58,924 bases of DNA from a virus (Duplodnaviria > Caudoviricetes), in the IMG/VR virus record IMGVR_UViG_3300037119_004955, positions 1 through 58,924 of that record. One strand, written 5' to 3'. Under the pieces are notes generated by a model. The model did no database searches. It was given only the letters and a program-made list of their open reading frames with translations, and had not been told where the DNA came from. Positions 4,528 through 49,709 of this stretch are shown one piece after another. Position numbers and translations under genes: made by a program. Positions within the stretch are counted from its first letter, which is position 1; every line of letters begins with the position of its first letter.

Positions 4528-6101
4528 TATTCGTTCTCCTTAGGTCTTCCGCCCTGAGGTTCCGGAGTGCCAGGACGCTTCTGAGGCCCGGCTTGTTGTT
4601 TTGCGGCTGATGCTTCCTTTACCGCTTCCATCACGGAATCAATGTCAAACTTCTTCAGGGTGCTAAGCCCCAACAAGTTGATAAGCTGGTTAACGTCCAC
4701 CGTGGCAGCAAGTTCTCGAGCAAGGTTCGGCTCGTTCGAGAATGCCAGCAGCATAGCCTTCGCAGCCTGAACCTTCCTGTCCACAAGGGATGACGGCTTG
4801 ACCAGTATCTTGCCAATGGCCGACTGACCGTGGTTCAGTTCCAGAAGAGCGTTGGCGATACTTTGCACTGCGGAAGCAAACCACATGTCCTCTTTCGTGG
4901 CGGACATCGTGCCAGTGTCGGTGTGAACGCCAGCTTCCTCTTTCGTGCCGTGCTGCGCTTCCAATCCAGTCCTCGCCGATCGGTGTCCACCATTAAACAT
5001 CAGTTCTTCGGCGTGCTTCATCCTCTCGATGAGCCCGTTAATGGCTGGGCCATGGTTGCCGTAATCCAACACCTGCACATTGGTCAGGGATTTGGAAGCC
5101 AGTTCAGCGAGTATTCTGGCGTGCTCAAGCGTATTGCTTGTGCCCTTGACGTCGGCGACTAGGGACATGGACGGGAACCACACGCCGGGTGCTCCGGTGG
5201 ACAATGCCCTAATTACCTGTTCGGCGTTTGACTTGAAGCTAACCTGCGTTGGTTTCCCGTCTTCTCCAGGAGGTCCCGCATACGTGCCAGAAGGCGACGT
5301 CACGATAGTGACCATCCCGGTAATTTTCACACCGAGGCGCGCCAGCTGCTGAGCGCAGTCAAGCCATTCTTTCCAGGCGGTATCGCGAACGTTTTCCAGC
5401 CAAGATCTCCCGTACACATATCCGCCAGTCCCGGCGTTATCGTAAGTGTACAGGAATCCTTTGTACGGCGTGGGGATGTCAACGTAAGCCGCATCCGTCC
5501 CATCCGGTCCTGGCACGTTGTTTCGGATGCCCACCGGTGCCCCGGTCTCGTCGGTCAGAACCTGTGTGGACTCGTTGAGCAAGTCCTTTATACCTGCCAA
5601 CTCGTACTGACCTTCGGAAAACTGCCATTTAAGTTCGCAGGTGGCCCATCCGAAATCTCGCGCCGGCACAAACACCTGGCTAAGTAAAGCCAGCCTGATC
5701 CGGTCGATGTTGCGCCGCACGGTGTCCACCCATTCATCTTTGATAGAAGTGTCCTCGGTATCCAACTTTACATAATCATAGCTGGAACAAAGGATGATGG
5801 CGGTGCAGATTTCGCGGACTAGCTGAATCACCGGATGTTTCAACATCCACCGGTAAGTCCATGGACTCGCAATGTACGGATTACTCCATCCGGGAAAACC
5901 ACACGGATTAAGCGCACTCCCGCCGTTCCCAAACAGGTTCGGCCCCATTAGGAAAGCAGATTCGAAAGGCGCAGGAGTCTTGACCACTGCTCCGTTTATG
6001 CGGGCGTGGCCGTTGTGCTGATCACCGGTGTTGAGTCCCAGCAACTGCTTGCGATCAAGCGGCGTGCTGGAGAACCGACCCTTGGTTGTACGTATTCTCA
6101 C
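4527..6101 (-). CDS. Portal protein (Mu gp29/DUF935-like)
   Basis: 524 aa between terminase and protease; FGWATCELKW and YGRSWLE motifs resemble DUF935 portals. Confidence 0.75.
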   Translation of the reverse strand: MRIRTTKGRFSSTPLDRKQLLGLNTGDQHNGHARINGAVVKTPAPFESAFLMGPNLFGNGGSALNPCGFPGWSNPYIASPWTYRWMLKHPVIQLVREICTAIILCSSYDYVKLDTEDTSIKDEWVDTVRRNIDRIRLALLSQVFVPARDFGWATCELKWQFSEGQYELAGIKDLLNESTQVLTDETGAPVGIRNNVPGPDGTDAAYVDIPTPYKGFLYTYDNAGTGGYVYGRSWLENVRDTAWKEWLDCAQQLARLGVKITGMVTIVTSPSGTYAGPPGEDGKPTQVSFKSNAEQVIRALSTGAPGVWFPSMSLVADVKGTSNTLEHARILAELASKSLTNVQVLDYGNHGPAINGLIERMKHAEELMFNGGHRSARTGLEAQHGTKEEAGVHTDTGTMSATKEDMWFASAVQSIANALLELNHGQSAIGKILVKPSSLVDRKVQAAKAMLLAFSNEPNLARELAATVDVNQLINLLGLSTLKKFDIDSVMEAVKEASAAKQQAGPQKRPGTPEPQGGRPKENE

Positions 6102-7551
6102 TGTTCACCACCGTTGCTTCGTCCATACAGACGTCAAACTGCAGACCTTCCAATCCGTCCACGTAAGCGACTCCGTATCGCATAGTGTCCATTCCGTGAT
6201 TGTCTCTATCTTCAGGTACCTCCTTAGGGGTCTTGCCTTCCTTCTTCTGAGGGTAAGAGTACCCATCAAACTCAGCTGTCGTCTTAGTCGGCAGGGACTC
6301 TGCCACTAATTCTGGGTCCGTCTCATGCAGCGCGTCAGGCAGGAAGAATATCCTTGGCCGACCATCCTCCTGGACAAGAAGCCTACCACGCACCGCCTCG
6401 ATACCAGGTTCAATCGCTTTGAATGCTGGCTGCGTCGGTATTCCCGCACGTTCAAGCGTCGCCCTGTCTTCAGCATCGTGATCACAGATCGTGGCCTCAA
6501 TCTCTTCCCCTGCCGAAAGCAGTTGTATTGTCTCCGCATGATCGGCGACCAGTCTTCTGGAGAAATAGATCTCTCTATAGAGATACATCCTTTTGTCTTC
6601 GTCGATCGCCCACCACTGGCAGACGAATGGATTGATGAACCCGAAATCTATTACTCTAATCCTGCGCCATGATGCTGGCACATCCGCACGGTACTTGATT
6701 AGCGGGGTCCCGCTGTGGATGTCCTCGCTGAAATCTGGATATACCGAACCTTCGGCAGCAGCCCACAGTCCCTTAAGCAGTCGTGACTTACGCGCTCCGG
6801 TCAGCCTCGACAGCCTCGCAATATAGTTCGCGCCAAAAGCTGTTGGTGTGCCGTCAACATTGTACAGTATCGGATTGTCCTGGTGCCTGCTCCGCAGCCT
6901 AGTCATCACCTCACGGCGCGATGCCCTCTTGTTCAGCCAGTGACTCGGATACGTCGGGTTGCAGTCCACGATGATCTGCTGATAAGGCACCATCCCGTTA
7001 CGAAGTCTGGTAGTCAGATTTTCAAAGTCTTCCTCCGACGCTTCCGTCCCCTCGAAAAGTATGATAATGTCGTAGTCTGACGACATGATGCGAGTGGACT
7101 TGTCAAGGCCTCCCACAACAATGATAGATCCGTTAGGATACTTGTAACTCTGACGGAAGTTTCTCTGAGGGCCATACAATGCTGGGAAGTCCGCTTGTAC
7201 AACCTTCTCCTCATACGTCACCAGGACAGTCTCGCTAAGACTTTCGCGAGTTTTTCTAACGAGAAGTATTCTGCAACCAGGATACTTCATCGCTATGAGA
7301 TGTGCTTTCTCAAGAGCCCCGCGAGACTTCCCGGTGCCAGCAGGACCCTCGATCAAAATCTCAGGGTCCTTATTCTTCCATAGCTCCCTCGCAGCCCCTC
7401 GTGGCTCGTAGGCGCGTGACCCCACAGGAAACCTGAGGGAGGCACCTTCTGGAGAAAAAACGCCTGCGGCTGCGCTGGCGGCACGATAAACCTTCACGCG
7501 CATGCGCGGGCTACGGCTAGGGCTGCGAGGATCGAAAACCTTACACTTCAT
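6055..7551 (-). CDS. terL: Terminase large subunit
   Basis: Walker A GPAGTGKS, DCNP..PSHW coupling motif, nuclease IDFGF and DNHGMDTMRY; start is 7551 or 7503. Confidence 0.95.
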   Translation of the reverse strand: MKCKVFDPRSPSRSPRMRVKVYRAASAAAGVFSPEGASLRFPVGSRAYEPRGAARELWKNKDPEILIEGPAGTGKSRGALEKAHLIAMKYPGCRILLVRKTRESLSETVLVTYEEKVVQADFPALYGPQRNFRQSYKYPNGSIIVVGGLDKSTRIMSSDYDIIILFEGTEASEEDFENLTTRLRNGMVPYQQIIVDCNPTYPSHWLNKRASRREVMTRLRSRHQDNPILYNVDGTPTAFGANYIARLSRLTGARKSRLLKGLWAAAEGSVYPDFSEDIHSGTPLIKYRADVPASWRRIRVIDFGFINPFVCQWWAIDEDKRMYLYREIYFSRRLVADHAETIQLLSAGEEIEATICDHDAEDRATLERAGIPTQPAFKAIEPGIEAVRGRLLVQEDGRPRIFFLPDALHETDPELVAESLPTKTTAEFDGYSYPQKKEGKTPKEVPEDRDNHGMDTMRYGVAYVDGLEGLQFDVCMDEATVVNSENTYNQGSVLQHAA

Positions 7552-22939: not shown

Positions 22940-23668
22940 ATGGCTGACGATCGTGAAGTGATAGTTAACCGAATCAAGAAACTGATGGCTTACGCATCAG
23001 ACGGTTCTGCTACCGAAGCGGAAGTCGAGGCTGCCACCGGTCGCGTGCGTAAGTTGATGGACGAGTGGAACATCGCTCACTCCGAGATATCAACTAATCA
23101 CGACGCTGCCGAGACTGCTTACCAGAGCATCATCGAGGTGTCCTGCTTCGATCGCGCCAACGCGGTGCCGAAGTTCTTCCGGAGGCTAGCCCACGTGCCG
23201 GACAAGATCTGCGACACTAGCCATTACCTCGACAGCCGTGCCGATCCGAAGAAGCCGGGTAAGACCCGCGAGCACGTCGTGTACTATGGCCTGCCGCGTG
23301 ACGTCGAGGTGGCAGTAGCTCTCTTTAGAGAGTTACTCGCTACCTGCCACGCCATGACTTGGTTCCGCTGTGGTAAGGAAGGCTGGGGCGCAGACCACAA
23401 CAGCTACGCCATGGGCTTCGCCGATAGGCTCCTCGAGCGTGCCAAGGCCCAGCTGGCTGCCTCCCAAGTCGCTTGCAACACAACCGCCATAGTCCTGGTG
23501 AAGGGTAATCTGCTCAAGCGTTACCATGACAAGATCGGCCTAAGCCCGATGCGTTCTCGAGCAGGGCGCATGTCTGGCGGTAAATACGATCAAGGTTACT
23601 CCGACGGCGCAGGCGTCTCTCTGGGGGTAAACCAGATCAGTCGCGCTCCGAAAGGTCTCTTAGATTAG
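22940..23668 (+). CDS. DUF2786-family protein
   Basis: RIKKLMA...EVEAA...KLMDEWNI N-terminus and SY..GF motif. Confidence 0.75.
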   Translation: MADDREVIVNRIKKLMAYASDGSATEAEVEAATGRVRKLMDEWNIAHSEISTNHDAAETAYQSIIEVSCFDRANAVPKFFRRLAHVPDKICDTSHYLDSRADPKKPGKTREHVVYYGLPRDVEVAVALFRELLATCHAMTWFRCGKEGWGADHNSYAMGFADRLLERAKAQLAASQVACNTTAIVLVKGNLLKRYHDKIGLSPMRSRAGRMSGGKYDQGYSDGAGVSLGVNQISRAPKGLLD

Positions 23669-25502: not shown

Positions 25503-26159
25503 ATGCCAAACCATTGTGAAAACGATCTGACGATCATCGGCCCGTTGCCCGATCTGGAGTCATTTCTTGCCGGATGCGAGGTCATTGACGACAACGGAGA
25601 AAAGATGCTGCGCATTTGCCGAGGTCATTACCCAATGCCGGGGAGCTTGTGCGTGGATAGCATTGCGTCCAGCAACGCGGAGGGCGCTTATGCCGCGAAG
25701 TACGGCACTCAGGAGCAGCTTGACTACTGGTTGAATATGCCGTGGGCACCGGGCAAGGGGATTGTTGACCGCGCTACGTTGCTGCGGCATTTCTGTGAAC
25801 AAAGGCCGGATGCGGAGTTGCAAGCGGATTGCCGTCGTGACAATCTCCAGAAGTACGGCCACGCCGACTGGTACGATTGGGCGTGTGAGAAATGGGGTAC
25901 GAAATGGGGCGACTACGAGACAGAGAAGGAATTGGTTATCCAGAAACCGGGCCGGTTGCCGCAGGTTACGCTTCACTTCCGTTCGGCGTGGAGTCCGCCA
26001 ATCCCGGCGTTGCTGCATATCAGCACGAAATGGCCAACCCTTACATTTGACTTAGCATATTTTGAAAGTGGAATGGGGTTCAAGGGCACGGCTCGCATTC
26101 GCGGCGGCCATGAGCACGAGAAAACGCACGGCAAGTATTCGGGGAGTCGCGGAGGATAA
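25503..26159 (+). CDS. DUF1281/YubB ferredoxin-like protein
   Basis: MPNHCEN, WYDW...WGTKW, F.SAWSPP and YFESGMGF motifs. Confidence 0.8.
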   Translation: MPNHCENDLTIIGPLPDLESFLAGCEVIDDNGEKMLRICRGHYPMPGSLCVDSIASSNAEGAYAAKYGTQEQLDYWLNMPWAPGKGIVDRATLLRHFCEQRPDAELQADCRRDNLQKYGHADWYDWACEKWGTKWGDYETEKELVIQKPGRLPQVTLHFRSAWSPPIPALLHISTKWPTLTFDLAYFESGMGFKGTARIRGGHEHEKTHGKYSGSRGG

Positions 26160-32100: not shown

Positions 32101-32642
32101 GAGTTAAGACCGTGGCTGCGGCAATATTCCCTCCCTTGTTCAAGGTCTTGTCACCGGACATTGAGGTATGGAGGTTCTTTTGGAAAGGAAAGAAGGGCAA
32201 CCGATATTCCCTAAGACCGTCCGCCCCCTTCACCGGCACCGTAGACAAGGCTATTACTTACGCACGTAAACAATGGCCTAACCTACGAGGTCAAATCGAG
32301 ATCGAGGAGGTCACCGTACATAAGGAATATCACGAGGCCCTCAAAAACCAAGAGTTCCGAGATGTGGTTGCCGGCAGGCAGCACCTGTACTACTTTGTAT
32401 ACTGGCGTTCCGATACGAAAGGACCGCATGGATTCCTTAACTTCTGTGGTCTGGCCAAGGCACACAGCCGCGCCCTTGCCGAAAGCGAGGCCTTACGCCG
32501 TTATGGGCTTATCAGCCGTCGCCTCACGGTCTTGCCTTGCCACCCCGGCGATCGAGACAAAGGCGAACTGGACCTTCTGCATCGGGCTGCTTCTACTCCA
32601 GAAGTGGCGCGCCTCTCGCTGCGGGTTCGGAGGGCTAAATGA
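32097..32642 (+). CDS. Hypothetical protein
   Basis: AAGGAG RBS; ATGA coupling. Confidence 0.6.
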   Translation: MRVKTVAAAIFPPLFKVLSPDIEVWRFFWKGKKGNRYSLRPSAPFTGTVDKAITYARKQWPNLRGQIEIEEVTVHKEYHEALKNQEFRDVVAGRQHLYYFVYWRSDTKGPHGFLNFCGLAKAHSRALAESEALRRYGLISRRLTVLPCHPGDRDKGELDLLHRAASTPEVARLSLRVRRAK

Positions 32643-33016
32643 TTTCGGAGTCGAAGGAGATTGACGGATACGAAGTATCTTTGAAGGACATCGTGCGCTT
32701 CCTATCGTTTGTCAAGGAAGACGAAAAAGGGTGCTGGGTGTGGCAAGGACACCGCGACGCTAAAGGGTATGGTCAGTTCTGGTGGAACGGAAACCCAGTA
32801 TGGGCTCATCGTTTCGCGCATGCCATATTCATCGGTATCGTTCCAAAGAAGCATCATGTGCACCATAAGCATGGGTGTCGCAATCCGTCATGCTGCAACC
32901 CGGAGCACATCCAGCAGATAACCCACAAAGCAAACTCAAAGGACGGTGCGTGGGTGCGCGAACACCGTAGGAAGATACTAGTGGACGCGACCTGCCTTTT
33001 ATTCGAAAGGGACTGA
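32639..33016 (+). CDS. HNH endonuclease
   Basis: CWVWQG...GYG...AHR...HH...CRNPSCCNPEH...N. Confidence 0.9.
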   Translation: MISESKEIDGYEVSLKDIVRFLSFVKEDEKGCWVWQGHRDAKGYGQFWWNGNPVWAHRFAHAIFIGIVPKKHHVHHKHGCRNPSCCNPEHIQQITHKANSKDGAWVREHRRKILVDATCLLFERD

Positions 33017-33019
33017 ACG

Positions 33020-33547
33020 ATGATATTTAAAGTAATCTCCGGCGGACAAACCGGTGTGGATATCTCAGGACTCCGCGCCGCCAAAAGTCTGGGCATAGAA
33101 ACTGGGGGGTGGATGCCACGACAGTACATGACTCATGATGGTTCTCACCCAGAATACGCTACCGAGTACGGTGTAAAGGTATTTGGTAGTTATAAAGATC
33201 GCACGTGGATGAACGTAAAGGCTTCCGACATCACCATCCGCATTGCGAAGGATTGGAACTCTTCTGGGGAAAACTGCACGCTCAATGCTTTGAAACATTA
33301 CGGTAAGACTTACTGGGATGTGGAGGTTGCGAACAATGGCGACGATGGACAGCTAATGTTTGTAAACTGTGTGAAAAACTCCATCGATGTAGTTTCAACG
33401 TTGATAGTTGCCGCAAAGCCGTACCAAAAAATCACAACTGTGAACATCGCTGGCAATAGTGAGAAGACCTGTCCAGGTATCGAAGAAATATCGCTTGTAT
33501 TTCTAACGGAACTATTCAAAAAGGTACTGCAATGGGACTCAAAGTAA
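33020..33547 (+). CDS. SLOG-superfamily protein (putative molybdenum-carrier family)
   Basis: ISGGQTGVD..GL.AA...G..TGGW.P, RT..NV..SD and NIAG motifs. Confidence 0.8.
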   Translation: MIFKVISGGQTGVDISGLRAAKSLGIETGGWMPRQYMTHDGSHPEYATEYGVKVFGSYKDRTWMNVKASDITIRIAKDWNSSGENCTLNALKHYGKTYWDVEVANNGDDGQLMFVNCVKNSIDVVSTLIVAAKPYQKITTVNIAGNSEKTCPGIEEISLVFLTELFKKVLQWDSK

Positions 33548-37769: not shown

Positions 37770-37941
37770 TAAGCTGGCAGAATTAGTTGAAAAAATGGGC
37801 CAGCATATCCAGAAGCAGATAAAGTGCACGATGGTGTCGGTGAAGCTGGCCGGCATGATCGCTCACAACAACTCTGCTACTGACCCAGACGAGATCTATT
37901 CGCAGGCCAGCTTTGAAGAGTTAGCAAAGGAACTGGAGTGA
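37747..37941 (+). CDS. Hypothetical protein
   Basis: AGGAG RBS. Confidence 0.5.
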   Translation: MLNQQDIDKLAELVEKMGQHIQKQIKCTMVSVKLAGMIAHNNSATDPDEIYSQASFEELAKELE

Positions 37942-38516
37942 TCGAACGCCGCCTGAATCTTCTCGGTAAACCCACCGCCCTGTCGTGGGCTGCGCACATT
38001 CTACCTTGGAACTTCTGCACCAAGTGTGATATTGCAGAACGTTGCAAGCATAAAGTCCTCGCTGCTGGAGTGCTGCCTTGCCAGGTGCTGTTCATCGGCG
38101 AAGGCCCAGGTGAGAACGAAGATAATACCGGCATGCCTTTCGTAGGACGTGCCGGCGACGTGTTGCAAAAGTGGATCGATCAATCGCTTTCCGTCACGCA
38201 GTATAGCTACGCAATCACCAATGTTGTGGCCTGTCGCCCTACTAGTCCGGAGGGGATAAATCGTCCCCCAACCGCATTCGAGATAGAAAACTGCAAGGCA
38301 CGTCTGATCAAGACTATCTCGATAGCGAATCCAAAAGGGATTGTACTGTTAGGAGGTATTGCAAGGGACAATCTACCAAACTCATATGCTGGAGAAACGC
38401 TCCACCTTTACCACCCGGCGTATATGTTTCGCGTAGGCAGTCGAAACTCAGATCTGAGTGACAGCCAGGCTGCTAGGTTAACTGATTGGGTCAAGCATCT
38501 TCTGGAGAAAAAATGA
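37938..38516 (+). CDS. Uracil-DNA glycosylase family 4 (Fe-S)
   Basis: CTKC, GEGPGENED..G.PFVGRAG, TNVVACRP, NRPP..EI..C and HPAY motifs. Confidence 0.9.
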   Translation: MIERRLNLLGKPTALSWAAHILPWNFCTKCDIAERCKHKVLAAGVLPCQVLFIGEGPGENEDNTGMPFVGRAGDVLQKWIDQSLSVTQYSYAITNVVACRPTSPEGINRPPTAFEIENCKARLIKTISIANPKGIVLLGGIARDNLPNSYAGETLHLYHPAYMFRVGSRNSDLSDSQAARLTDWVKHLLEKK

Positions 38517-41689: not shown

Positions 41690-42238
41690 ATGAAGTTTTA
41701 CATCGCTGCTCCGTTTTTCAACGACGTACAGTTGGGTGCAGTCAAAGCACTCGAACTCATCATCGAGGAACACGGACATCAGTATCATTCTCCCCGCCTA
41801 CACCCACGTAACGCTGGCGCTAGTAAGCTTGAGAAGCTGACGCAGGATCAGGCTGAGGAGATCTTTCAAGACGACGTCAAAGGCATCGTGCATTCGAATG
41901 CCGTCATCGCCACCCTTGACTGGCTACTCCCAGAGAATGACGTCGTCCAGCATGTCAGAACTACCGGTAGCGAAGTCAAGGTTACGCCGCTTAACCTCCC
42001 CGACACCGGCACCGTGTTCGAGATGGGCTATGCCTACTCATACGGCAGGCCCATCTTCGGGCTTACGTACCGACCAGTCGGAGACCGCCTCAACCTGATG
42101 CTAACGCAGTCTTGCAAGGCCGTGATCTACGGTCTTGATCAGCTTCGTGGTTTTATGTCGAGCGTCAAGACTGGGGTGGCAGGCGACATCTCCTGGGACA
42201 GAACAATAATAGGCGGATGGAAAGGTGAGCACCGATGA
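41690..42238 (+). CDS. Nucleoside 2-deoxyribosyltransferase/nucleotide N-glycosidase family protein
   Basis: YIAAPFF, IFQDDV..I, D.GTVFEMGYA...GRP and NLML motifs. Confidence 0.9.
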   Translation: MKFYIAAPFFNDVQLGAVKALELIIEEHGHQYHSPRLHPRNAGASKLEKLTQDQAEEIFQDDVKGIVHSNAVIATLDWLLPENDVVQHVRTTGSEVKVTPLNLPDTGTVFEMGYAYSYGRPIFGLTYRPVGDRLNLMLTQSCKAVIYGLDQLRGFMSSVKTGVAGDISWDRTIIGGWKGEHR

Positions 42239-42897
42239 AACTGTCCATCGAAGCAATGATGCGTGGCCAAGCCGCAAGGCTTCGAGCCGTTCAACGCTAC
42301 AGTACCTGCGACGTCCACTATCCAGAGAATGTCGCCGAGCACTCGTTCCACGTCGCCTTCTACGCGCTGATGGTCGGCACGTGGTATCTGGATAACGCCA
42401 CCAAGGACCGCATCAGCAACGTGTATTATGATGGCGATTTGTCTCTGGAGAAGTTGCTAAGCCGAGCGATACTCCACGATCTGGAGGAGGCTCGCACCGG
42501 AGACTTCCCGCGATCTTTCAAGCATTCATCCCAGCAGTTGATGCACCAGCTGGACCAGATGGCTAGTGATGCTTTAGTGTCGATACTCGGGGAACTGTGC
42601 CCAGACGCTTTCTCCGCCAATAGCACGGTAGGTGCAAACCTCCTGTCTCACTGGGAAATGGCTAAGGATGAAACTCTCGAAGGTAGTATCATCCTGTTCT
42701 GCGATTACCTTGCCGTTCTCTCATACGTAATGCGAGAGATAGATTCAGGCAACTACTCGATAGTCCGGCATGTGGCGGAAATGGATAAGTATGCCGAAGA
42801 GTTCAAAAATCAAAGGTTTGACTTCATCCGACCTCTCGTTAGCGAGTCGTGGGAACTCCACCAAGCAGTTCTCAAGATCGGACCTAGTCAAACTTAG
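42235..42897 (+). CDS. HD-domain nucleotide phosphohydrolase (YfbR/DatZ-like)
   Basis: RY...ENVAEHS, AILHDLEE..TGD and CD.L motifs. Confidence 0.9.
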   Translation: MKLSIEAMMRGQAARLRAVQRYSTCDVHYPENVAEHSFHVAFYALMVGTWYLDNATKDRISNVYYDGDLSLEKLLSRAILHDLEEARTGDFPRSFKHSSQQLMHQLDQMASDALVSILGELCPDAFSANSTVGANLLSHWEMAKDETLEGSIILFCDYLAVLSYVMREIDSGNYSIVRHVAEMDKYAEEFKNQRFDFIRPLVSESWELHQAVLKIGPSQT

Positions 42898-43267
42898 GAA
42901 ACAACGCGAGGCGATGTACGGCAACACTGCGCATAACATGCGCACGCTGGGCATCGCCTTCACTTCGCTAATCGAGGCGCAGTACGGAATAAGGCTTCCG
43001 TACGCGATTCCTCCCCACGTGGCTGCGCTTGTGATGGTCCATATCAAGACGGTGCGCGCCTGTGGGCCGACGTACCACGGCGACAATTACGACGACGCGC
43101 ACAACTTTCTAACTTTTGCACAGGAATGCGATGAACATATTACTAACCGGCGGCACAAGCGGAATAGGAAGAACGATAGAGCGAAAATTGCGGGAACAGA
43201 AGCACAAGGTATTCGTGGCGGGAAAGGGGGAGCAGTCAGATTACCAGGCGGACTTCAACACCTGTGA
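42791..43267 (+). CDS. DUF6378-like protein
   Basis: R...YG....N....VA..M...K..R......DNY.D..N pattern; overlaps both neighbours; start uncertain. Confidence 0.65.
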   Translation: MPKSSKIKGLTSSDLSLASRGNSTKQFSRSDLVKLRKQREAMYGNTAHNMRTLGIAFTSLIEAQYGIRLPYAIPPHVAALVMVHIKTVRACGPTYHGDNYDDAHNFLTFAQECDEHITNRRHKRNRKNDRAKIAGTEAQGIRGGKGGAVRLPGGLQHL

Positions 43268-43871
43268 CGAGGAAGGAGTAAAAGACATATTCGAGGACGC
43301 TAGTGACGCGATGGGCGGACCGATCGAATGTCTTATCAACAACGCCGGTTGGACGAATATCGATTGGCTAGAAGATCAGGATCCGAGTAAGATGAGCGAG
43401 AACATCAGAGCTAACTTGATATTCCCTATGTTTTTCTCCAGAGAGATGGCGCGCCTAACGCCGGTATCTCCTGGGGGAAAAGCGGGTCTGCGAAAGAGAA
43501 TCATTAACACTGGGTCGATGGCCACCAAGATGTCAATGCGGGCGAGTGCCCCTTACTGCGCTTCCAAGGGTGGGCTGGAAGCGTTCACTCGCCAGGCTGC
43601 AAAGGAATTTGCCGGCAGGAAACCGATAGACATCTTCATGGTATCCCCGTGTACTATTGCCGACACCGCCATGTCCGAGCAGGTAGTCCATGATCTGGTA
43701 AGGACTAGGAGAATGACCGAGGCAGAAGCTCGCAAGTATGCTATGCAGTCTCCGCTCGGTCGCGTCGCCACTCACGAGGAGGTGTGGAGAGCCTTTGACT
43801 TCTTCGTGAATAGAGCAACCTCAGCGTACTCCGGAACTGTATTATACCTAACAGCAGGGATGGGACTATGA
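43131..43871 (+). CDS. Short-chain dehydrogenase/reductase (SDR)
   Basis: TGGTSGIG, INNAG, catalytic S...YCASK and PLGR motifs. Confidence 0.92.
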   Translation: MNILLTGGTSGIGRTIERKLREQKHKVFVAGKGEQSDYQADFNTCDEEGVKDIFEDASDAMGGPIECLINNAGWTNIDWLEDQDPSKMSENIRANLIFPMFFSREMARLTPVSPGGKAGLRKRIINTGSMATKMSMRASAPYCASKGGLEAFTRQAAKEFAGRKPIDIFMVSPCTIADTAMSEQVVHDLVRTRRMTEAEARKYAMQSPLGRVATHEEVWRAFDFFVNRATSAYSGTVLYLTAGMGL

Positions 43872-44086
43872 CAAGGAAAGAACTAGTTATAGCAGTAATC
43901 ACCAGATGTATAAAGCACGATGATTCTGATCCCGACGTGATCATCGCAAGGCTAGCTAAGGATATCGGCAAGGCCAACTTAATAAGCTTTATGACCATGC
44001 CGATCAGGGACATAGTTCAAACACTCGGCGAGCTAACGATCCAAGAGGCGTACGAGATATACAAAAAGTCGAAAGGAGAAGCATGA
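43868..44086 (+). CDS. Hypothetical protein
   Basis: ATGA coupling on both sides. Confidence 0.55.
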   Translation: MTRKELVIAVITRCIKHDDSDPDVIIARLAKDIGKANLISFMTMPIRDIVQTLGELTIQEAYEIYKKSKGEA

Positions 44087-45354
44087 AAGCCAAGATCACT
44101 TTAATGGCGTGGACGCAGCCGCTCATCGAGACGATCTACTGTGAATGGGAGTTGAGTCGATCCGAGGGACCGGTGCCGACTCCGCAGGAGGTGCGGCAGC
44201 TTATCGCTGATGAAAGAATGGTCTCGCGACTGGCCCGGCAAAGAGGAGTAAGCCGCGAGCAAGCCACCGAGATGTTCAAGAGCCATGAGTTCTCGGTCGA
44301 GTTCATCCCAGAAGATCCTCCACTCCCGATGATGGATTATGAGCGTAAGGTGCGGAAGGTGTTCGAAGACTGTGTGCAGATGAAGGTGCCCTTGGCGGAG
44401 ACGGTGGGGTTCGTATTCGCGCTCGAAAACATCTCTATCTCACTCCGCGAACAGCTAGTGCGGCACCGCGTCGGACACAAGTTCGGACCCAACTTCGCAG
44501 TCGGGCTCATGCCAGATGAGCCGTCGTCAAGCTATTGGTCCCAGTCGATGCGGGCGTATAACGTTGGGGCGTTCGCCAAGAACAAGCAATATCTTGTGCC
44601 GACATGGATCGAGGAGCATCTCAACGACCAGATTAATAATCCTGGCATTATGATGGCTGGCGGGGACAAGTGCACGGTGGAGACCGTATATCGAAGGGGG
44701 ATGCGGATGGCAGAGGAACACTACCGATGGCTGATCGAGGCTGGTTGTCCTCCAGAAGATGCCCGCAACCTGCTGCCTGTCGGTATTAATCACCGTCTCA
44801 CATGGTCCTGCAACCTGTCCTCTCTCGTGCACCTGCTCAGCAAACGAGGGTGCTGGATCGCCCAGATGGATATGTGGGAGCCGATCGTCCGCGGTATCGT
44901 GGATGAACTCTGTACCAAAGTGGACCCGTACTTTCGCACCCTGATCGACCCGCCGTGCGTGAGCGGGAATGAGTTCGTCGGCTGCAAGTTCCACAAGGAG
45001 AACAAAGAGTACATTAAAGGAACCGATCCACACTACCCCTGCCCACTCTGGCTACACAACCATGAAGACAAAGTGAGCGAAGGAATCAACGAGGCACAAT
45101 ACGGGCAAGAGACGTGGGGGTGGAACCATTCCCTGGGTGAAAACAAATCGGTGCCTGTAAAGGCGAAGAATGCGTCGGGCGGCCAGATCACCGCTTCTCC
45201 CAGAAGATCGTACGTAAGTGGGGAGCGGAAGATAGGCGAGTCCAAGACCGAAAGTCTCCGTCGTGAGTGGGATGGGTTCGCCAAGCGTAGGGAAGTTTAC
45301 GCGAGTCTGTGGGGGCGTGATCCTTACACTGGCAAAAGGGTTAGGATGGGTTAG
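44083..45354 (+). CDS. thyX: Divergent ThyX-like flavin-dependent thymidylate synthase family protein
   Basis: EQLVRHR, SQSMR, EDARNLLP and R.C..AQ motifs; has insertions and a Cys-containing C-terminal extension. Confidence 0.8.
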   Translation: MKAKITLMAWTQPLIETIYCEWELSRSEGPVPTPQEVRQLIADERMVSRLARQRGVSREQATEMFKSHEFSVEFIPEDPPLPMMDYERKVRKVFEDCVQMKVPLAETVGFVFALENISISLREQLVRHRVGHKFGPNFAVGLMPDEPSSSYWSQSMRAYNVGAFAKNKQYLVPTWIEEHLNDQINNPGIMMAGGDKCTVETVYRRGMRMAEEHYRWLIEAGCPPEDARNLLPVGINHRLTWSCNLSSLVHLLSKRGCWIAQMDMWEPIVRGIVDELCTKVDPYFRTLIDPPCVSGNEFVGCKFHKENKEYIKGTDPHYPCPLWLHNHEDKVSEGINEAQYGQETWGWNHSLGENKSVPVKAKNASGGQITASPRRSYVSGERKIGESKTESLRREWDGFAKRREVYASLWGRDPYTGKRVRMG

Positions 45355-45396
45355 AACTGAATAAAAGGAAAGACATGCTCTCTCGAGGACCGTACA

Positions 45397-47559
45397 ATGT
45401 CAAGGTTGATAGAAGGGGACCTGATAGCGTTTGACACAGAAACGACGGGGCTATACCCATGGAAAGGAGACAAGCCGTTTGCGTTTTCATTCTGTAACGA
45501 AAAGTTTGAGACCGCGTACATCGAGTTCGAAGTAAATCCGTTCAACCGCCAGCCGATCGTAGATCACGACGCACTGGACCTGGCTAGGAAGGTACTGGAA
45601 GATGAGTCCGTTGTCAAAGTAATGCACAACGGTAAGTTTGACGTGCGCATGTGCGATATGGGATACGGCATACATCTGGCCGGTCCTGGCGGGAGGGTTA
45701 GTCAAGGAGGAGACTTCGAAGAAACAATGTTCGCAGCGCATTGCTGCAACTCCCTCGAGCCTACTCTCAAACTCAAAAGGCTCGGTGATAAATACACCCC
45801 GGTGAGTTCAGCCGATGAGAAGGAGTTAAAATCATGCGTCACCAGACTGCGCAAGAAGGCTGAAAAGCTTGGCTGGATGATCAAGATCGAACCGCGCCTC
45901 AAGCCAGAGGGGGAGGTGAAGAGGAAGAAGGATGCTGAGGGCCCAGCTGACTACTGGATACCGTACACGCTCCACCGTCGCCACCCAGAACTCTGTTCCG
46001 AATACGAATCAACGCTGTGCGAGAAGTACGCGGTGTTCGACGCAGTCCGCACAATGTATCTGCATATCCTGTATCGCGACCTGCGGGAGCGGCTGGACGT
46101 AAACCACACCTACCAGTTTGAAAAAACCATATGGCCAATAGTTTACCATATGGAGTATCGCGGCGTGCACGCCTTCCCGGACAAGCTTGAAGATCGGATG
46201 AATGACTGTATCAAGGCGCGCGCCGATCTCTGGAAAAGAATCATCGCTATCAACGATGGACCGCTGAATACCGGCAAGTACTCGGACATGTACAACTACA
46301 TCTACAACATTTGCGAGATACCGTTTGACGAGCGTTGGATGACTAAGAAGTCCCACAAGCCGTCCACCGGTCGCAAGGTGATGGAGATGAATCGCGCTGA
46401 CGAGCGTATTGACATGGTCATCAAGTACAAGGCTAACGGCAAGGCTTTTGATTACTTCGCCGACTATCAGCGGTTGTCTGTCCCAGAAGGTGCCGGCACC
46501 ATCTTACACCCGGATTTCCAGCAGATAGGACCCAAGACCGGACGGTTCGCTTGTCGCAGCCCGAACATCCAGCAAGTCACCGACATTTCCAGCGCGACAT
46601 CGCTCGAGCCTCAAGACATTCGCTGCGTGTTCGGTCCTCGCCCCGGTTACGTGTGGTTCCACAATGACTACAAAGGAATGGAAGTCAACGTGTACGCTGA
46701 TTGCTCGCAGGAGCCTAACATGCTCCGAGCCATCGCCGAAGGCCGAGAGATTCACGATGAGGTCACGAACCGTGCTTGGGGAGGTCGAGGAAACGAACGA
46801 GGTCTAAAGGAGTGCGTACACGTACTGGGGTTGGACGGCACTGACCCAGGCAATAACGATGACTTGGTCAAGCTACTGCGGTCGTGGAGTATTACCCCAG
46901 GTCGTAAGCTGCCGGTGCAAGAAGCGTATGATATCGCTGATGCCTGGATGAGAAAGTTCGACTGGGATATCGTGAAGGCTCAAGCAAGCATCGGAAAAAA
47001 GGTCACCAAGAATAAAGCTAAGATGGTGACCTTCCTGAAGATCTATGGCGGGGGCGTGGATGGTGCAATGACTTTGCTCAAGATGAGCAGAGAAGAGACG
47101 TATGACTTCCTACAGCACTACAACAACACCTTCCCCCGAATCCCAGAATACCAAGCAGAATTATCTGAGCAGGCTAAGCTAGATGGGTACGTCAGAACTT
47201 TGTATGGCAGGCGTCTTGAAGTTCGCCGCTACAAGGCTTATCAAGCGGTGAACTACGTTGTACAAGGTACTTCCGCCGACCTGCTCAAGGCCGCCATGAT
47301 CAAATGTTCCAACCACTTCCATAGAAACTGGCTAGACGCTCACATCATTATGCCGGTACACGACGAACTAGCTTTTGAAATCAACAGGCGGGATATGACT
47401 TATCGACTCGCCAACGAGATCTGCGACTTTATGGAGGACACCGATGGAAATATAAACGTGCCGATGAAGGTTGATCCCTCTCTTGTGACCGAGCGGTGGT
47501 CAATCAAGGAAAAGGTTACGCTTGATAGGAAAGCGTGGGCATTGAGGAAGGCGGCATGA
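45397..47559 (+). CDS. Family A DNA polymerase with 3'-5' exonuclease
   Basis: DTETTGL, HN.KFD, YA..D, TGRFAC..PNIQQ, DY..ME, K...F...YG, QGTSAD and VHDE motifs. Confidence 0.95.
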   Translation: MSRLIEGDLIAFDTETTGLYPWKGDKPFAFSFCNEKFETAYIEFEVNPFNRQPIVDHDALDLARKVLEDESVVKVMHNGKFDVRMCDMGYGIHLAGPGGRVSQGGDFEETMFAAHCCNSLEPTLKLKRLGDKYTPVSSADEKELKSCVTRLRKKAEKLGWMIKIEPRLKPEGEVKRKKDAEGPADYWIPYTLHRRHPELCSEYESTLCEKYAVFDAVRTMYLHILYRDLRERLDVNHTYQFEKTIWPIVYHMEYRGVHAFPDKLEDRMNDCIKARADLWKRIIAINDGPLNTGKYSDMYNYIYNICEIPFDERWMTKKSHKPSTGRKVMEMNRADERIDMVIKYKANGKAFDYFADYQRLSVPEGAGTILHPDFQQIGPKTGRFACRSPNIQQVTDISSATSLEPQDIRCVFGPRPGYVWFHNDYKGMEVNVYADCSQEPNMLRAIAEGREIHDEVTNRAWGGRGNERGLKECVHVLGLDGTDPGNNDDLVKLLRSWSITPGRKLPVQEAYDIADAWMRKFDWDIVKAQASIGKKVTKNKAKMVTFLKIYGGGVDGAMTLLKMSREETYDFLQHYNNTFPRIPEYQAELSEQAKLDGYVRTLYGRRLEVRRYKAYQAVNYVVQGTSADLLKAAMIKCSNHFHRNWLDAHIIMPVHDELAFEINRRDMTYRLANEICDFMEDTDGNINVPMKVDPSLVTERWSIKEKVTLDRKAWALRKAA

Positions 47560-49709
47560 GAGTACGCAAAAACAAAAGCTACCTCGCTACGCTCGCCCGA
47601 CTCGGCATATCGGTCGAAGATGCTGGCGACGAGCAGTACCGTGGAGTGTGTCCGTTTTGTGGAGACCAGAATAAGGATGATGCGGACCACTTCTACATAC
47701 ACGAAATGAGCGGACAATGGGATTGCAAGAAGTGTGGCGCCAGGGGAAACATGTTCAGCTTTCTTACTAAGCTAGCAGCTAAGTTTCACAGGCAGGTCAC
47801 TGAGACCGAGTGGACATTTCTTTCCAGAAATAGGGGCATCCCTTCCGAGGCGTTCAAGCTTGACGGGATTGGGTTCAACCTCGGCCAATGGTGGTTGCCG
47901 GTAAAGTCCGAAACCGGGATGGTGCGTGATATGCCCCATTGGACCCCAGAAGGGAAGATGATAACGCTTGACGGATGTGAAACTCAGCTGTGGGGAGCAG
48001 AGGAACTCGTCAAGGCTCCAGCCGGTGCCAAGGTTTGGGTGTGCGAAGGTAGATGGGATGGCCCAGTGTGGCGGTGGTTGCTCTGGAAAGCGAACAAGCA
48101 CAAGCATGTAGTGGTGGCGGTGCCGGGTGCCAACACCTTCAAAGACCAGTGGGTTGAATGGTTTAAGAAAAAGTCGGTTATACTGTGTTATGATAACGAC
48201 ACCCCAGGAGACAACGGCGCGGAGCGTGCTGCAGAAAAACTTGAGGGCACCGCTGCTGACATTAAATATCTTTGCTGGCCAGAATCACTACCATCCAAGT
48301 GGGACCTAAGGGATCAAGTAAAGTCTGGGCTCGAGCAGAAGAAATCTCCGCAAGATATATACAGCAGCGTTAACTCAATCGTTCGATCAAAACACAGACG
48401 GGCATCTTCTGGAGAAAAAAAAGCTGATCAAACTATCGGCCCGCCGATATCGTTTGAGAAGCTAATCGAAATGCAATCCAAATGGGTCGAGATGCAACAG
48501 GACCTAAAGGATGGGTGGGCAGTGTCCCTCGCGACTTGTCTTGGCAACGAGGTGTCCGGCGAACCTCTGTGGATATATCTAGTGGGGCCTCCGGCTAGTG
48601 GCAAGACGCTAATACTCCTGTCCCTGCAAACGGCGGAGCGATGCGTGTTCAGGTCAACTATTACCCCAGCTGGTCTGGTATCCGGGTTCAATACTCATCC
48701 TGATCCTAGCCTGCTGCCAAAGCTGGACGGCCGTACTGCCATCTTTAAGGACGGCACCGAACTGCTGGCCATGCATCAGGATGCTCGTCGGGAAGCTTTC
48801 TCAACCTTGCGCGGAGCCTATGACGGATTTGTCAGTAAGAGTTTCGGCAACGGAGTGATCCGCGAATACAAGCTGCACTTCAATATGCTGGTGGGCATAA
48901 CTCCAGCCATCCACGCCGACAATCAGGCCACGATGGGAGAGAGGTTTCTGAAGTTCGAAATACGGGAGGACCTAGCCACGGTCGAGGCTCAGATCCGCGC
49001 CGCTGCCAGCAACCTCACGTATGAGGAAGCCATGAGCGAGGATATGCAGGAAGCGTGCAATCGTTTTCTAAATAGAGAAGTTGATGACAAGAAGCTGCCA
49101 ATGATCAACGAGGATATGATGGACAGGATAGTGGCGCTATCCCGTATGCTGGGAATGCTTCGCGCCAAGGTAGAGAGGACAGCCGGAAGAGATCCTGAGC
49201 TAGCATACCGACCCACGTATGAACTTGGCACCAGAATAGCTAAGCAGATGTGCAAGATGGCTCGGCTCCTTGCTTTCGTGTACGGCTTGGACGCTGTGGA
49301 CGAATCGGTATACAGGGTTATAAAGAAGCTTGCGATTGATTCGTCCATCGGCTACCACATGGACATTGTGCGCAACTATATGAGAGACGGCAACCCAGGT
49401 CGTTCTCTCCCAGAAGTAGCCTCGATGAGCAGGATTCCTATTGATACCTGTAGGGCTAGGTTCAAGGACTTGGAGAGCCTAAACGTTCTGCGCCCGCTCA
49501 CCAGAGAGGAGAGCGCGGCGTATCAGGTAAGTCAACTTGGTCTTGTGCCGGCAAGGTGGAAAGTTTCTCAGCTGGTAGTATCCTTGTGGCAGCGGAGCAT
49601 GGCGAAAGGCGGTCCCAAAACCCCCATCCGACTCAGAAACAATGCCGACGCCAACGGCAGCCACGTAGCCGGTTCCAAGGGGCTAAGGGTCCGAACGGCC
49701 CGCCTTTGA
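47556..49709 (+). CDS. Primase (zinc finger + TOPRIM) fused to MCM-like AAA+ helicase
   Basis: CPFC...CKKC, CEG..D and YDND..G motifs; GPPASGKT, TPAGLVSG, LRGAYDG and ERFL motifs. Confidence 0.85.
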   Translation: MRVRKNKSYLATLARLGISVEDAGDEQYRGVCPFCGDQNKDDADHFYIHEMSGQWDCKKCGARGNMFSFLTKLAAKFHRQVTETEWTFLSRNRGIPSEAFKLDGIGFNLGQWWLPVKSETGMVRDMPHWTPEGKMITLDGCETQLWGAEELVKAPAGAKVWVCEGRWDGPVWRWLLWKANKHKHVVVAVPGANTFKDQWVEWFKKKSVILCYDNDTPGDNGAERAAEKLEGTAADIKYLCWPESLPSKWDLRDQVKSGLEQKKSPQDIYSSVNSIVRSKHRRASSGEKKADQTIGPPISFEKLIEMQSKWVEMQQDLKDGWAVSLATCLGNEVSGEPLWIYLVGPPASGKTLILLSLQTAERCVFRSTITPAGLVSGFNTHPDPSLLPKLDGRTAIFKDGTELLAMHQDARREAFSTLRGAYDGFVSKSFGNGVIREYKLHFNMLVGITPAIHADNQATMGERFLKFEIREDLATVEAQIRAAASNLTYEEAMSEDMQEACNRFLNREVDDKKLPMINEDMMDRIVALSRMLGMLRAKVERTAGRDPELAYRPTYELGTRIAKQMCKMARLLAFVYGLDAVDESVYRVIKKLAIDSSIGYHMDIVRNYMRDGNPGRSLPEVASMSRIPIDTCRARFKDLESLNVLRPLTREESAAYQVSQLGLVPARWKVSQLVVSLWQRSMAKGGPKTPIRLRNNADANGSHVAGSKGLRVRTARL

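Follow-up and report, generated by a model that had tools for sequence, protein, structure and literature searches.

Why does an uncultured soil phage carry six tightly packed genes, among them a divergent relative of the flavin-dependent thymidylate synthase ThyX, directly 5' of its DNA polymerase gene? The locus lies at 41690-47559 of the IMG/VR virus record IMGVR_UViG_3300037119_004955, a 58,924-bp stretch that was analysed whole and is called the window here. A first-pass annotation had read the block as a new pathway making a non-canonical, probably pyrimidine, deoxynucleoside triphosphate (dNTP). Judged by gene content and order, the block at 41690-45354 is a compact form of a conserved, polymerase-linked phage nucleotide module comprising a nucleoside deoxyribosyltransferase (NDT), an HD phosphohydrolase, the ThyX-like protein, a DUF6378 protein and, here, a short-chain dehydrogenase/reductase (SDR). 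Because its closest cultured-phage relatives occur in viruses whose thymine is replaced by a bulky modified base, the module probably makes an unusual DNA base, and we put the probability at about 0.55 that it acts before replication to supply a C5-modified deoxyuridine nucleotide like those of SP-15 and YerA41. The pyrimidine proposal was thus borne out in part by comparative genomics, through a conserved module and through cultured relatives with hypermodified thymidine. The block and the polymerase gene are laid out as follows.

41690-42238, + strand: NDT, 182 aa; PF05014, E = 7.5e-15
42235-42897, + strand: YfbR/DatZ-type HD phosphohydrolase, 220 aa; PF12917, 7.5e-19
42770-43267, + strand: DUF6378 open reading frame (ORF), 165 aa; PF19905, 9.2e-8
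43116-43871, + strand: SDR, classical, FabG-like, 251 aa; PF00106, 1.3e-25, and PF13561, 1.5e-21
43868-44086, + strand: 72-aa ORF, translationally coupled on both sides; no family match
44083-45354, + strand: ThyX-like flavoenzyme, 423 aa; PF02511, 1.5e-20, residues 88-264 only
45397-47559, + strand: PolA, family A DNA polymerase with 3'-5' exonuclease; PF00476, 1.1e-55, and PF01612, 4.3e-9

The description of six overlapping or coupled genes directly 5' of the polymerase was borne out, all of them lying on the + strand. Overlaps of 4 nt join NDT to HD, the SDR to the 72-aa ORF and the latter to the ThyX-like gene, which is separated by 42 nt from PolA, the presumed consumer of the pathway product. 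The Pfam matches of the NDT, HD, DUF6378, SDR, ThyX-like and PolA proteins all exceed the curated cut-offs.

The module in uncultured phages

An alignment-based search recovered 64 IMG/VR loci with the ThyX-like family, which a single-protein query had failed to return. The loci split into two contexts, group A (31 loci, genomes of ~40-65 kb) and group B (33 loci, mostly 80-116 kb, several genomes being complete with terminal repeats). All 25 group A loci with sufficient upstream sequence carried NDT and HD genes, and 23 carried DUF6378; the other six loci end within ~2.5 kb of the ThyX-like gene. The order NDT-HD-(DUF6378)-...-ThyX-like-PolA was kept in 25/25, indicating that the arrangement is more than chance, and PolA stood directly 3' of the ThyX-like gene in 29 related loci. 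A variable cassette lies between DUF6378 and the ThyX-like gene; it holds an SDR (5 loci and the window), a radical S-adenosylmethionine (SAM)/SPASM protein (11 loci), a SAM methyltransferase, unknown genes or a second ThyX paralog (5 loci).

Group B has a different gene order: MoxR ATPase, CobT-VWA, two unknowns, a flavin adenine dinucleotide (FAD)/NAD-binding oxidoreductase, a MazG/dUTPase_2 plus NT5C fusion, ThyX-like, a class-III aminotransferase, a thymidylate-kinase-like protein (phrog_761, 2.5e-6) and DnaE. The fusion, the NT5C part of which is a deoxy-pyrimidine 5'-nucleotidase, is directly 5' of the ThyX-like gene in 33 loci. Thus, a pyrophosphatase or nucleotidase activity adjoins the ThyX-like gene in both groups by way of non-homologous proteins. 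In one group B cluster (c7), the FAD/NAD-binding protein 5' of MazG-NT5C (L049:6311-7306) weakly matched NF002481, the FAD-dependent cmnm5s2U oxidoreductase part of MnmC (8.8e-4, far under the cut-off); together with the adjoining class-III aminotransferase, this match is a lead toward aminomethyl-type C5 chemistry.

The linkage was also approached from the NDT side. A scan seeded with the NDT alignment gave 255 loci, of which the best 80 were taken, 79 of them new. Among these 79 viral loci, HD was present in 70, a ThyX-profile match in 67 and both in 63, with a median NDT-to-ThyX distance of 1.1 kb; only 19 of the loci belonged to group A. In a further arrangement (group C), the order is archaeo-eukaryotic primase - UvrD - ThyX-like - NDT - HD - (endoV-like) - DUF6378 - DnaQ - DnaE, with an additional SDR in some members. 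The group C ThyX-like protein (~355 aa) is of a two-lobed type without any Pfam match, and it aligned with the window type (A2) over 198 columns, including the KRxCWIAQ...C...C...PC module, at 99.5% hhalign probability (E = 5e-23). Group D carries another ThyX-like type, beside which a canonical 225-aa ThyX is encoded in L107 and L121. The triad of NDT, HD and ThyX-like genes therefore recurs in several unrelated phage lineages, at least four, beside PolA or DnaE. The first-pass annotation had pointed to a neighbourhood of SDR, ThyX, NDT and HD genes; the last three recurred together, in 63/79 loci from the best 80 of 255, and the SDR turned out to be only a variable accessory.

The enzyme families of the block

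The ThyX-like protein scored 74.3 bits with PF02511 (cut-off, 24.8), the match covering residues 88-264 of 423, and 62.2 bits with the NCBI thyX equivalog TIGR02170, which is under the cut-off of 87.9. A large protein database held 33 relatives, the window protein included, and a HMMER search of 1.84 billion representatives with a 78-sequence profile gave 275 clusters (50% identity) at E<=1e-30. No member was found in 185,579 prokaryote species genomes (one genome per species), and the family therefore gives no host or prophage clue. By its sequence, the protein belongs to a distinct, virus-only subfamily. The divergence that had been claimed for this ThyX is thus seen in the sub-threshold equivalog score, in an insertion and a cysteine module, and in the virus-only distribution. 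There was no full-length match in cultured phages, the best being Listeria phage LIS04 (3e-19, 59% of the protein), and tblastn with the C-terminal 169 residues matched only LIS04, weakly.

In the family alignment, R127 of the RHR motif (127-129) and Q124 are invariant, H128 and R129 almost invariant. An insertion of ~20 residues follows the RHR motif and precedes WSQ(S/T)MR, in which S155-x-R157 is conserved and R157 is invariant. R228, R255 and Q261 are invariant as well; we take the arginines to be the nucleotide- and flavin-binding residues of ThyX. Compared with Thermotoga maritima ThyX (TM0449), the 'NAR' Arg and the 'SHAQ' His are both replaced. The C-terminal part of the protein holds an LWGRDPxTGE motif and a module of four near-invariant cysteines (C257, C292, C301 and C320). 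The AlphaFold2 model (pLDDT, 86.8) gave listed Foldseek matches that were all ThyX or the UMP/dUMP methylase PolB (4p5b), with E values of ~1e-6 and target-normalised TM scores of 0.58-0.72. The window protein has the fold of TM0449 and PolB and, the insertion and the two replaced positions apart, their RHR, Ser-x-Arg and Arg motifs; canonical ThyX, however, has ~220-240 aa, whereas the window protein has 423, with the post-RHR insertion and the C-terminal cysteine module.

Among 174 family proteins, none carried an NDT, HD or SDR fused to the ThyX-like part. Six members (P0041, P0042, P0047, P0114, P0144 and P0150) are 627-871 aa long, their core being split by insertions of ~280-330 residues that look like inteins or mobile insertions. 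The second, divergent paralog of five group A phages (293-302 aa; L006:7739-8647, L021:319-1227, L048:1800-2681, L050:1759-2643 and L064:6284-7165) has R-x-H-R for RHR and 'SESHQL' for 'SQSMR', and keeps the cysteine module; it may form a heteromer or carry out a second reaction.

The NDT scored 55.5 bits with PF05014 (cut-off, 28.8), and its best PDB match was a true deoxyribosyltransferase (6evs, 5.9e-12). Conservation extends to the catalytic Glu of PDTGTVFEMG, to an Asp six positions ahead of it and to the Asn in NLM; in 14 orthologs, D105, G107, T108 and E111 were invariant and N135 nearly so. The Asp/Asn positions that bind the 5'-hydroxyl are uncharged in the dAMP-specific DmtZ and in DNPH1-type hydrolases, and DNPH1, MilB and DmtZ, which take 5'-phosphates, lack the Asp/Asn that hold this group (PMC12884076). 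Since the window protein keeps both the Asp (D105) and the Asn (N135), it looks like a nucleoside transferase and not like the DNPH1/MilB-type nucleotide glycosidase of the earlier proposal. Most likely, it acts on deoxynucleosides, which the adjoining HD protein could supply.

The HD protein scored 68.5 bits with PF12917 (cut-off, 25.9), and its EHS and HD motifs aligned to YfbR (2paq). It matched phrog_7076, 'dATP triphosphohydrolase' (1.2e-16), and, in the PDB, YfbR 2paq (4.2e-7) and DatZ 6zpa (5e-3); the 5'-deoxynucleotidase equivalog NF003009 reached 48 bits, under the cut-off of 122. The substrate of the HD protein, whether deoxynucleoside monophosphate (dNMP) or dNTP and with which base, cannot be read from its sequence.

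The start of the DUF6378 ORF is uncertain (42770, 42791, 42815 or 42914), and the ORF overlaps or abuts HD; its conserved core starts before Met49, ahead of the first ATG downstream of the HD stop. It overlaps the SDR gene in a different frame by ~137-152 nt, a long overlap that recurs in L038 (127 nt), whereas the two genes overlap by only 4 and 16 nt in L002 and L003. Its AlphaFold2 model shows four helices (pLDDT, 85.9). Foldseek found no structural relative at E<=0.001, and a PDB profile search gave only a chance-level match. The best VIA-align Z score was 5.7, with MazG-like 2p06 (5.0) and 4qgp (4.8) lying within noise, and hhalign gave a probability of 0.3% against the group B MazG plus NT5C fusion. 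In 4 cultured phages, PF19905 had no match, but neither did the control, so that this negative carries no weight; the DUF6378 alignment itself is too variable to seed a search for loci. A MazG-like role for DUF6378 is neither supported nor ruled out by these comparisons.

The SDR has the YxxxK motif, and its best NCBIfam matches (the top 25 of 187) and PDB matches were FabG, ketoreductases and dehydrogenases, all far under equivalog cut-offs; no FolM or PTR1 entry stood among these 25 or among the top PDB matches. Orthologs occur only in L002, L003, L038, L053 and L055, that is, in 5/31 group A loci besides the window. These features mark the SDR as a variable accessory, a generic FabG-like enzyme, and leave the FolM/PTR1-type folate or pterin reductase suggested before without support. 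The group C SDR profile matched the window SDR at 3.5e-21. Orthology with the SDR encoded by SP-15 gene 129 was considered and is unsupported (pairwise E = 3e-4; no match of the group C SDR profile to SP15_129). The 72-aa ORF had no family match and no ortholog in the 64 related loci.

Cultured phages and the candidate pathway

When cultured phages were searched by tblastn with a group C protein, Xanthomonas phage phiXF1, Yersinia phages YerA41 and vB_Yru_GN1, and Bacillus phage SP-15 were matched. The group C profile found SP15_130 (4.6e-70), YerA41_081 (1.6e-75), phiXF1_88 (2.4e-94), QPB08579 of Vibrio phage Va2 (1.6e-46) and gene 049 of Carin-5 (1.2e-70), and LIS04_124 proved to be of the window's own type (profile, 1.4e-44; pairwise, 2e-26), LIS04 being the sole cultured carrier of this type that was found. 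SP15_130 had 10 matching records among 50,697 phage records. The NDT follows the same phages: a YerA41-type NDT had 8 matching records in the same set, 7 of which also carried the ThyX-like gene, the eighth being Geobacillus phage GR1. PF05014 was detected in 6/6 cultured phages tested and PF12917 in 5/6 (Va2 being without it), and the NDT gene adjoins the ThyX-like gene in phiXF1, Va2 and two further Vibrio phages.

The dihydroxypentyluracil (DHPU) chemistry of SP-15 has been known since the 1970s. In SP-15, YerA41 and Carin-5, thymidine hypermodified at C5 has been demonstrated by experiment, with a dihydroxypentyl-type linker bearing phosphate and sugars (PMC13697223, PMC12686479, PMC9023294). 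For the enzymes that build the C5 chain, the parts of the recent papers available list only 'a thymidylate synthase homolog' (PMC12686479, PMC13697223). In SP-15, only about half of the thymine is replaced (PMC5977210). Kropinski et al. (2018) hypothesised that the ThyX homolog gp130 of SP-15 is a synthase of 5-hydroxymethyl-dUMP (hmdUMP) and placed the adjoining reductase gene 129 among the DHPU genes (PMC5977210). In the available text of that paper, gp130 is said to have 'no homologs', NDT is not mentioned and the word 'deoxyribosyltransferase' has 0 occurrences (PMC5977210).

SP-15 genes 127-130 encode the same three enzyme families in the same order and adjoining: NDT (127), gene 128, an SDR annotated 'acyl carrier protein reductase' (129) and a Thy1 protein (130), in a phage whose DNA carries 5-(4',5'-dihydroxypentyl)uracil. 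At profile level, the long ThyX-like gp130 is homologous to the window protein, with a common C-terminal module. It is, however, of the two-lobed group C type, unlike the window protein, and the SP-15 HD gene is ~25 kb away, whereas that of the window adjoins NDT. The phages themselves differ: SP-15, a myovirus of 222 kb, has a polymerase fused to uracil-DNA glycosylase (UDG), a canonical ThyX besides gp130 and a sugar cluster of 10 genes (PMC5977210), and the window is a 59-kb phage without these. LIS04, an SP-15 relative, has the window-type ThyX-like gene in the corresponding NDT-ThyX-like cluster near its PolA, in the order PolA ... HD/PDEase ... NDT ... ThyX-like. A canonical synthase coexists in both phages (ThyX gp9 with gp130 in SP-15; ThyA, 8.5e-113, with LIS04_124 in LIS04), and the ThyX-like protein is therefore not their only thymidylate synthase.

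YerA41 (YerA41_081) and Carin-5 (gene 049) carry a ThyX-like gene, an NDT and a YfbR-like HD, as the window does, and Carin-5 has a FabG-like SDR 3 kb from its ThyX-like gene. In these phages, thymidine is replaced by a phosphoglycosylated base of ~1 kDa with a 104- or 88-Da linker. They are jumbo-like, however, their DNA resisted sequencing, their genes are more dispersed and YerA41_081 lacks the cysteines. The NDT of YerA41 is YerA41_086 (L147:12410-12946), which is annotated 'mannosyltransferase' and matched PF05014 above the cut-off (4.9e-15) and a local NDT profile (1.2e-22); its ortholog in Carin-5, 61% identical, is annotated nucleoside deoxyribosyltransferase. In Vibrio phage Va2, two 'hypothetical proteins' (L146:4748-5881 and 5890-6492) are a group C ThyX-like protein (1.6e-46) and an NDT (8.5e-28), followed by dUTPase, and the same adjacent pair occurs in Vibrio phages 1.031.O and 150E35-1; the DNA of these three phages may be modified. 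Phage GR1 has the order NDT - thioredoxin - HD - glycosyltransferase - ... - P-loop NTPase - RNase HI - NAD(P)H nitroreductase/dihydropteridine reductase - FAD-dependent thymidylate synthase (L152, 23909-29720), which makes it another candidate base-modification cluster with the same triad.

Two other known systems bear comparison with the window. The Z-genome module (PurZ-DatZ-MazZ/DmtZ-DpoZ) combines a YfbR-like HD (DatZ), the NDT-family DmtZ, a small pyrophosphatase-like protein and a family A polymerase, so that its logic and part of its toolkit match the window (PMC12884076). The window, however, lacks PurZ, and its NDT keeps the 5'-hydroxyl-binding Asp and Asn that DmtZ lacks. As the biosynthetic enzyme is ThyX-like, the target would be a pyrimidine, unlike that of the Z-genome. 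In ThyA-based hypermodification (PhiW-14, SP10, ViI, M6 and SH-Ab 15599), C5 chemistry on dUMP is likewise pre-replicative, with dTTPase/dUTPase control of the pool, and tailoring of the base falls to pyridoxal phosphate, radical SAM and FAD enzymes (PMC8989533, PMC13458397). These systems start from a ThyA homolog and need, after replication, a 5-hydroxymethyluracil DNA kinase (5-HMUDK) and aGPT-Pplase, whereas the window has no ThyA and neither of the latter families in general Pfam scans.

The absence of purZ, queuosine-pathway and ThyA genes noted in the first-pass annotation held. PF00709 (PurZ) had 0 matches at E<=0.1 in this 99%-complete record, a positive control having matched 14/14 genomes, and PF00303 (ThyA) matched neither the window nor any of 10 related genomes of groups A and B, in which the ThyX-like gene or genes were the only Thy1 matches. 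A Pfam scan of 58 window ORFs, ~35 of which had no match at all, gave no queuosine-pathway, kinase, glycosyltransferase or other nucleotide-metabolism match beyond the block.

How the module might work can be outlined from these families. The ThyX-like enzyme would catalyse the C-C bond-forming step, placing a carbon unit on C5 of dUMP before replication, and its product would not be, or not only be, dTMP; it could be a hydroxymethyl or a longer-chain derivative. Variable neighbours would tailor the side chain, the SDR here and a radical SAM protein, aminotransferase, FAD oxidoreductase or methyltransferase elsewhere. Host or phage kinases would raise the resulting C5-modified deoxyuridine nucleotide to the triphosphate, which the adjoining PolA would insert in place of part or all of thymine. 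The HD protein would convert a dNMP or dNTP to the deoxynucleoside and the NDT would handle the deoxyribosyl group, the two enzymes either draining competing dT/dU nucleotides or feeding the pathway. Removal of the competing normal dNTP, as put forward in the first-pass annotation, is thus one possible task of NDT and HD, but with only about half of the thymine replaced in SP-15 it cannot be all that they do.

A more speculative form of this pathway, in itself quite improbable, would make HD and NDT a donor arm that provides 2-deoxyribose as a five-carbon donor. Here, HD would turn a dNMP into the deoxynucleoside, NDT would release or transfer the 2-deoxyribosyl group, and the ThyX-like enzyme would couple a five-carbon aldehyde or oxocarbenium to C5 of dUMP instead of a one-carbon unit, which in ThyX comes from methylenetetrahydrofolate or formaldehyde. 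The flavin, and the SDR where present, would then reduce and deoxygenate the chain, yielding a 5-(poly)hydroxypentyl-dUMP that corresponds to the dihydroxypentyl linker of SP-15, YerA41 and Carin-5. Such an arm, if real, would account for the association of the ThyX-like gene with a nucleoside-type NDT and a deoxynucleotidase. It would also explain two findings that Walker and Mandel are said, by the titles of their 1978 work, to have made, namely that ribose label enters the SP-15 side chain and that the base is synthesised at the triphosphate level.

Several observations weigh against a C5-modification pathway in the window. Pairwise similarity between the window and SP-15 is weak (ThyX, 2e-4; SDR, 3e-4; NDT, 8e-4), and SP15_129 was not matched by the group C SDR profile. 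No recognisable dNMP kinase or glycosyltransferase was found among the 58 scanned ORFs, and 5-HMUDK and aGPT-Pplase were not among their Pfam matches, ~35 of the ORFs being matchless and no accession-targeted search having been made. The DNA was readily assembled from shotgun data and thus is not sequencing-refractory, unlike that of YerA41. The NDT occurs also in a plain salvage setting, with deoxyguanosine kinase and PnuC in Enterococcus phage VPE25, and the NDT-seeded counts are valid for this NDT clade only (the closest 80 of 255). The ThyX-like protein retains the RHR, the Ser/Arg motif and the other conserved arginines, so that it might be a plain ThyX that makes dTMP. Apart from the ThyX-like gene or genes, nothing resembling a thymidylate synthase was found in the window, in 5 group A genomes that are near-complete or in 5 complete genomes of group B.

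Some of these observations feed the alternative that survives best, possible but in our view doubtful, that a long ThyX supplies ordinary dTMP alongside deoxynucleoside salvage. HD and NDT would then recycle host dNMPs by dephosphorylation and base exchange and rebalance the four deoxynucleosides, and the SDR would be an unrelated auxiliary. Conserved ThyX catalytic and binding motifs, the lack of any other thymidylate-synthase-like gene in the window and in 10 related genomes that are near-complete, and assembly from standard metagenomes agree with such a role, as do VPE25 and the treatment of NDT as a salvage gene in cultured phages (PMC11981692). Yet no deoxynucleoside kinase that would return the products to the pool was recognised by Pfam in the 58 window ORFs, and salvage leaves the variable tailoring enzymes at this exact position unexplained. 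Furthermore, the window protein falls under the thyX equivalog cut-off, the same ThyX-like types coexist with canonical synthases in SP-15 and LIS04, and the cultured homologs include three proven T-hypermodified genomes.

We regard as unlikely an explanation that partly overlaps the proposed pathway, in which the ThyX-like enzyme makes only 5-hydroxymethyl-dUMP. The final base would be 5-hydroxymethyldeoxyuridine (5-hmdU) or a derivative made after replication by unrecognised genes, and HD and NDT would serve only to remove dTMP/dTTP, in the manner of hmdU/dU phages, which classically exclude thymine. This is the hypothesis published for gp130 (PMC5977210), although known hmdUMP synthases are ThyA homologs. 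Pool control of the dTTPase/dUTPase type is established for hmdU-derived systems (PMC13458397), the HD protein belongs to the DatZ/YfbR family, and the group B MazG plus NT5C fusion would fit the route from dTTP through dTMP to dT. Disposal alone, however, would not require an NDT of the nucleoside type, one that few phages in the database carry and that accompanies the ThyX-like gene. General Pfam scans recognised no 5-HMUDK or aGPT-Pplase in the window, and SP-15 keeps about half its thymine (PMC5977210). That HD, NDT and a cpYpsA protein of the SLOG family (gene at 33020-33547) degrade or rebuild nucleotides against host dNTP-depletion or nucleotide-signalling defences, the ThyX-like gene being linked by co-location only, is highly improbable even though conflict systems often contain NDT and SLOG folds, since the NDT/HD-ThyX-like linkage is tight (median, 1.1 kb) and is kept across lineages with different polymerases and in jumbo phages.

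In the literature on phage ThyX, modified bases, deoxyribosyltransferase and dihydroxypentyl, as far as its available text goes, the NDT-HD-ThyX-like module is undescribed; the gene tables of two of the papers may list NDT or HD (PMC12686479, PMC5977210). The pathway is new only in part. Thymidine hypermodification, the SP-15 base and a suspected ThyX homolog in SP-15 are already known, the last through the hmdUMP synthase hypothesis for gp130 and the listing of gene 129 as a DHPU gene (PMC5977210). What appears to be new is the virus-only ThyX-like family, its linkage to NDT and HD in at least four lineages, its presence in small soil phages and the variable tailoring cassettes.

A ThyX-like gene with NDT and HD spans small soil podovirus-like phages, ~100-kb DnaE phages and jumbo phages, and the minimal six-gene version offers a tractable set for reconstitution. 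Should the C5-modification pathway be real, it would be the first DNA-modification route built on a ThyX rather than a ThyA scaffold. It would also flag many metagenomic phages as carriers of modified thymidine and provide an enzyme source for C5-functionalised nucleotides.

The surrounding genome

The record is a whole IMG/VR virus with a completeness estimate of 99%, and it has no DNA-level similarity to cultured phages. The stretch 41690-47559 is contained in full on contigs from three soil metagenome shotgun runs, and no RNA run is listed among those that contain it. On the + strand, a replication module extends over ~35.3-49.7 kb and encodes, ahead of the block, an SNF2 helicase, RuvC, UDG, a PD-(D/E)XK nuclease, AAA_24 and a protein resembling single-stranded DNA-binding (SSB) protein. 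Two of its genes, on either side of the block and PolA, are the following.

37938-38516, + strand: uracil-DNA glycosylase superfamily gene; PF03167, 7e-24
47535-49709, + strand: primase-helicase

A UDG ortholog was present in 9 of the related loci; for T-modified phages, UDG has been discussed as acting in cis or in trans (PMC13697223). The early region carries, on the + strand at 33020-33547, a gene for a circularly permuted YpsA (cpYpsA) of the SLOG family (PF12694, 8.6e-22), a nucleotide-binding fold related to NDT, which had no ortholog in the 64 related loci. Other early genes with family matches lie at 22940-23668, 25503-26159 and 32639-33016, the families being DUF2786/DUF7168, a DUF1281_C ferredoxin-like (Api92-like) domain and HNH endonuclease.

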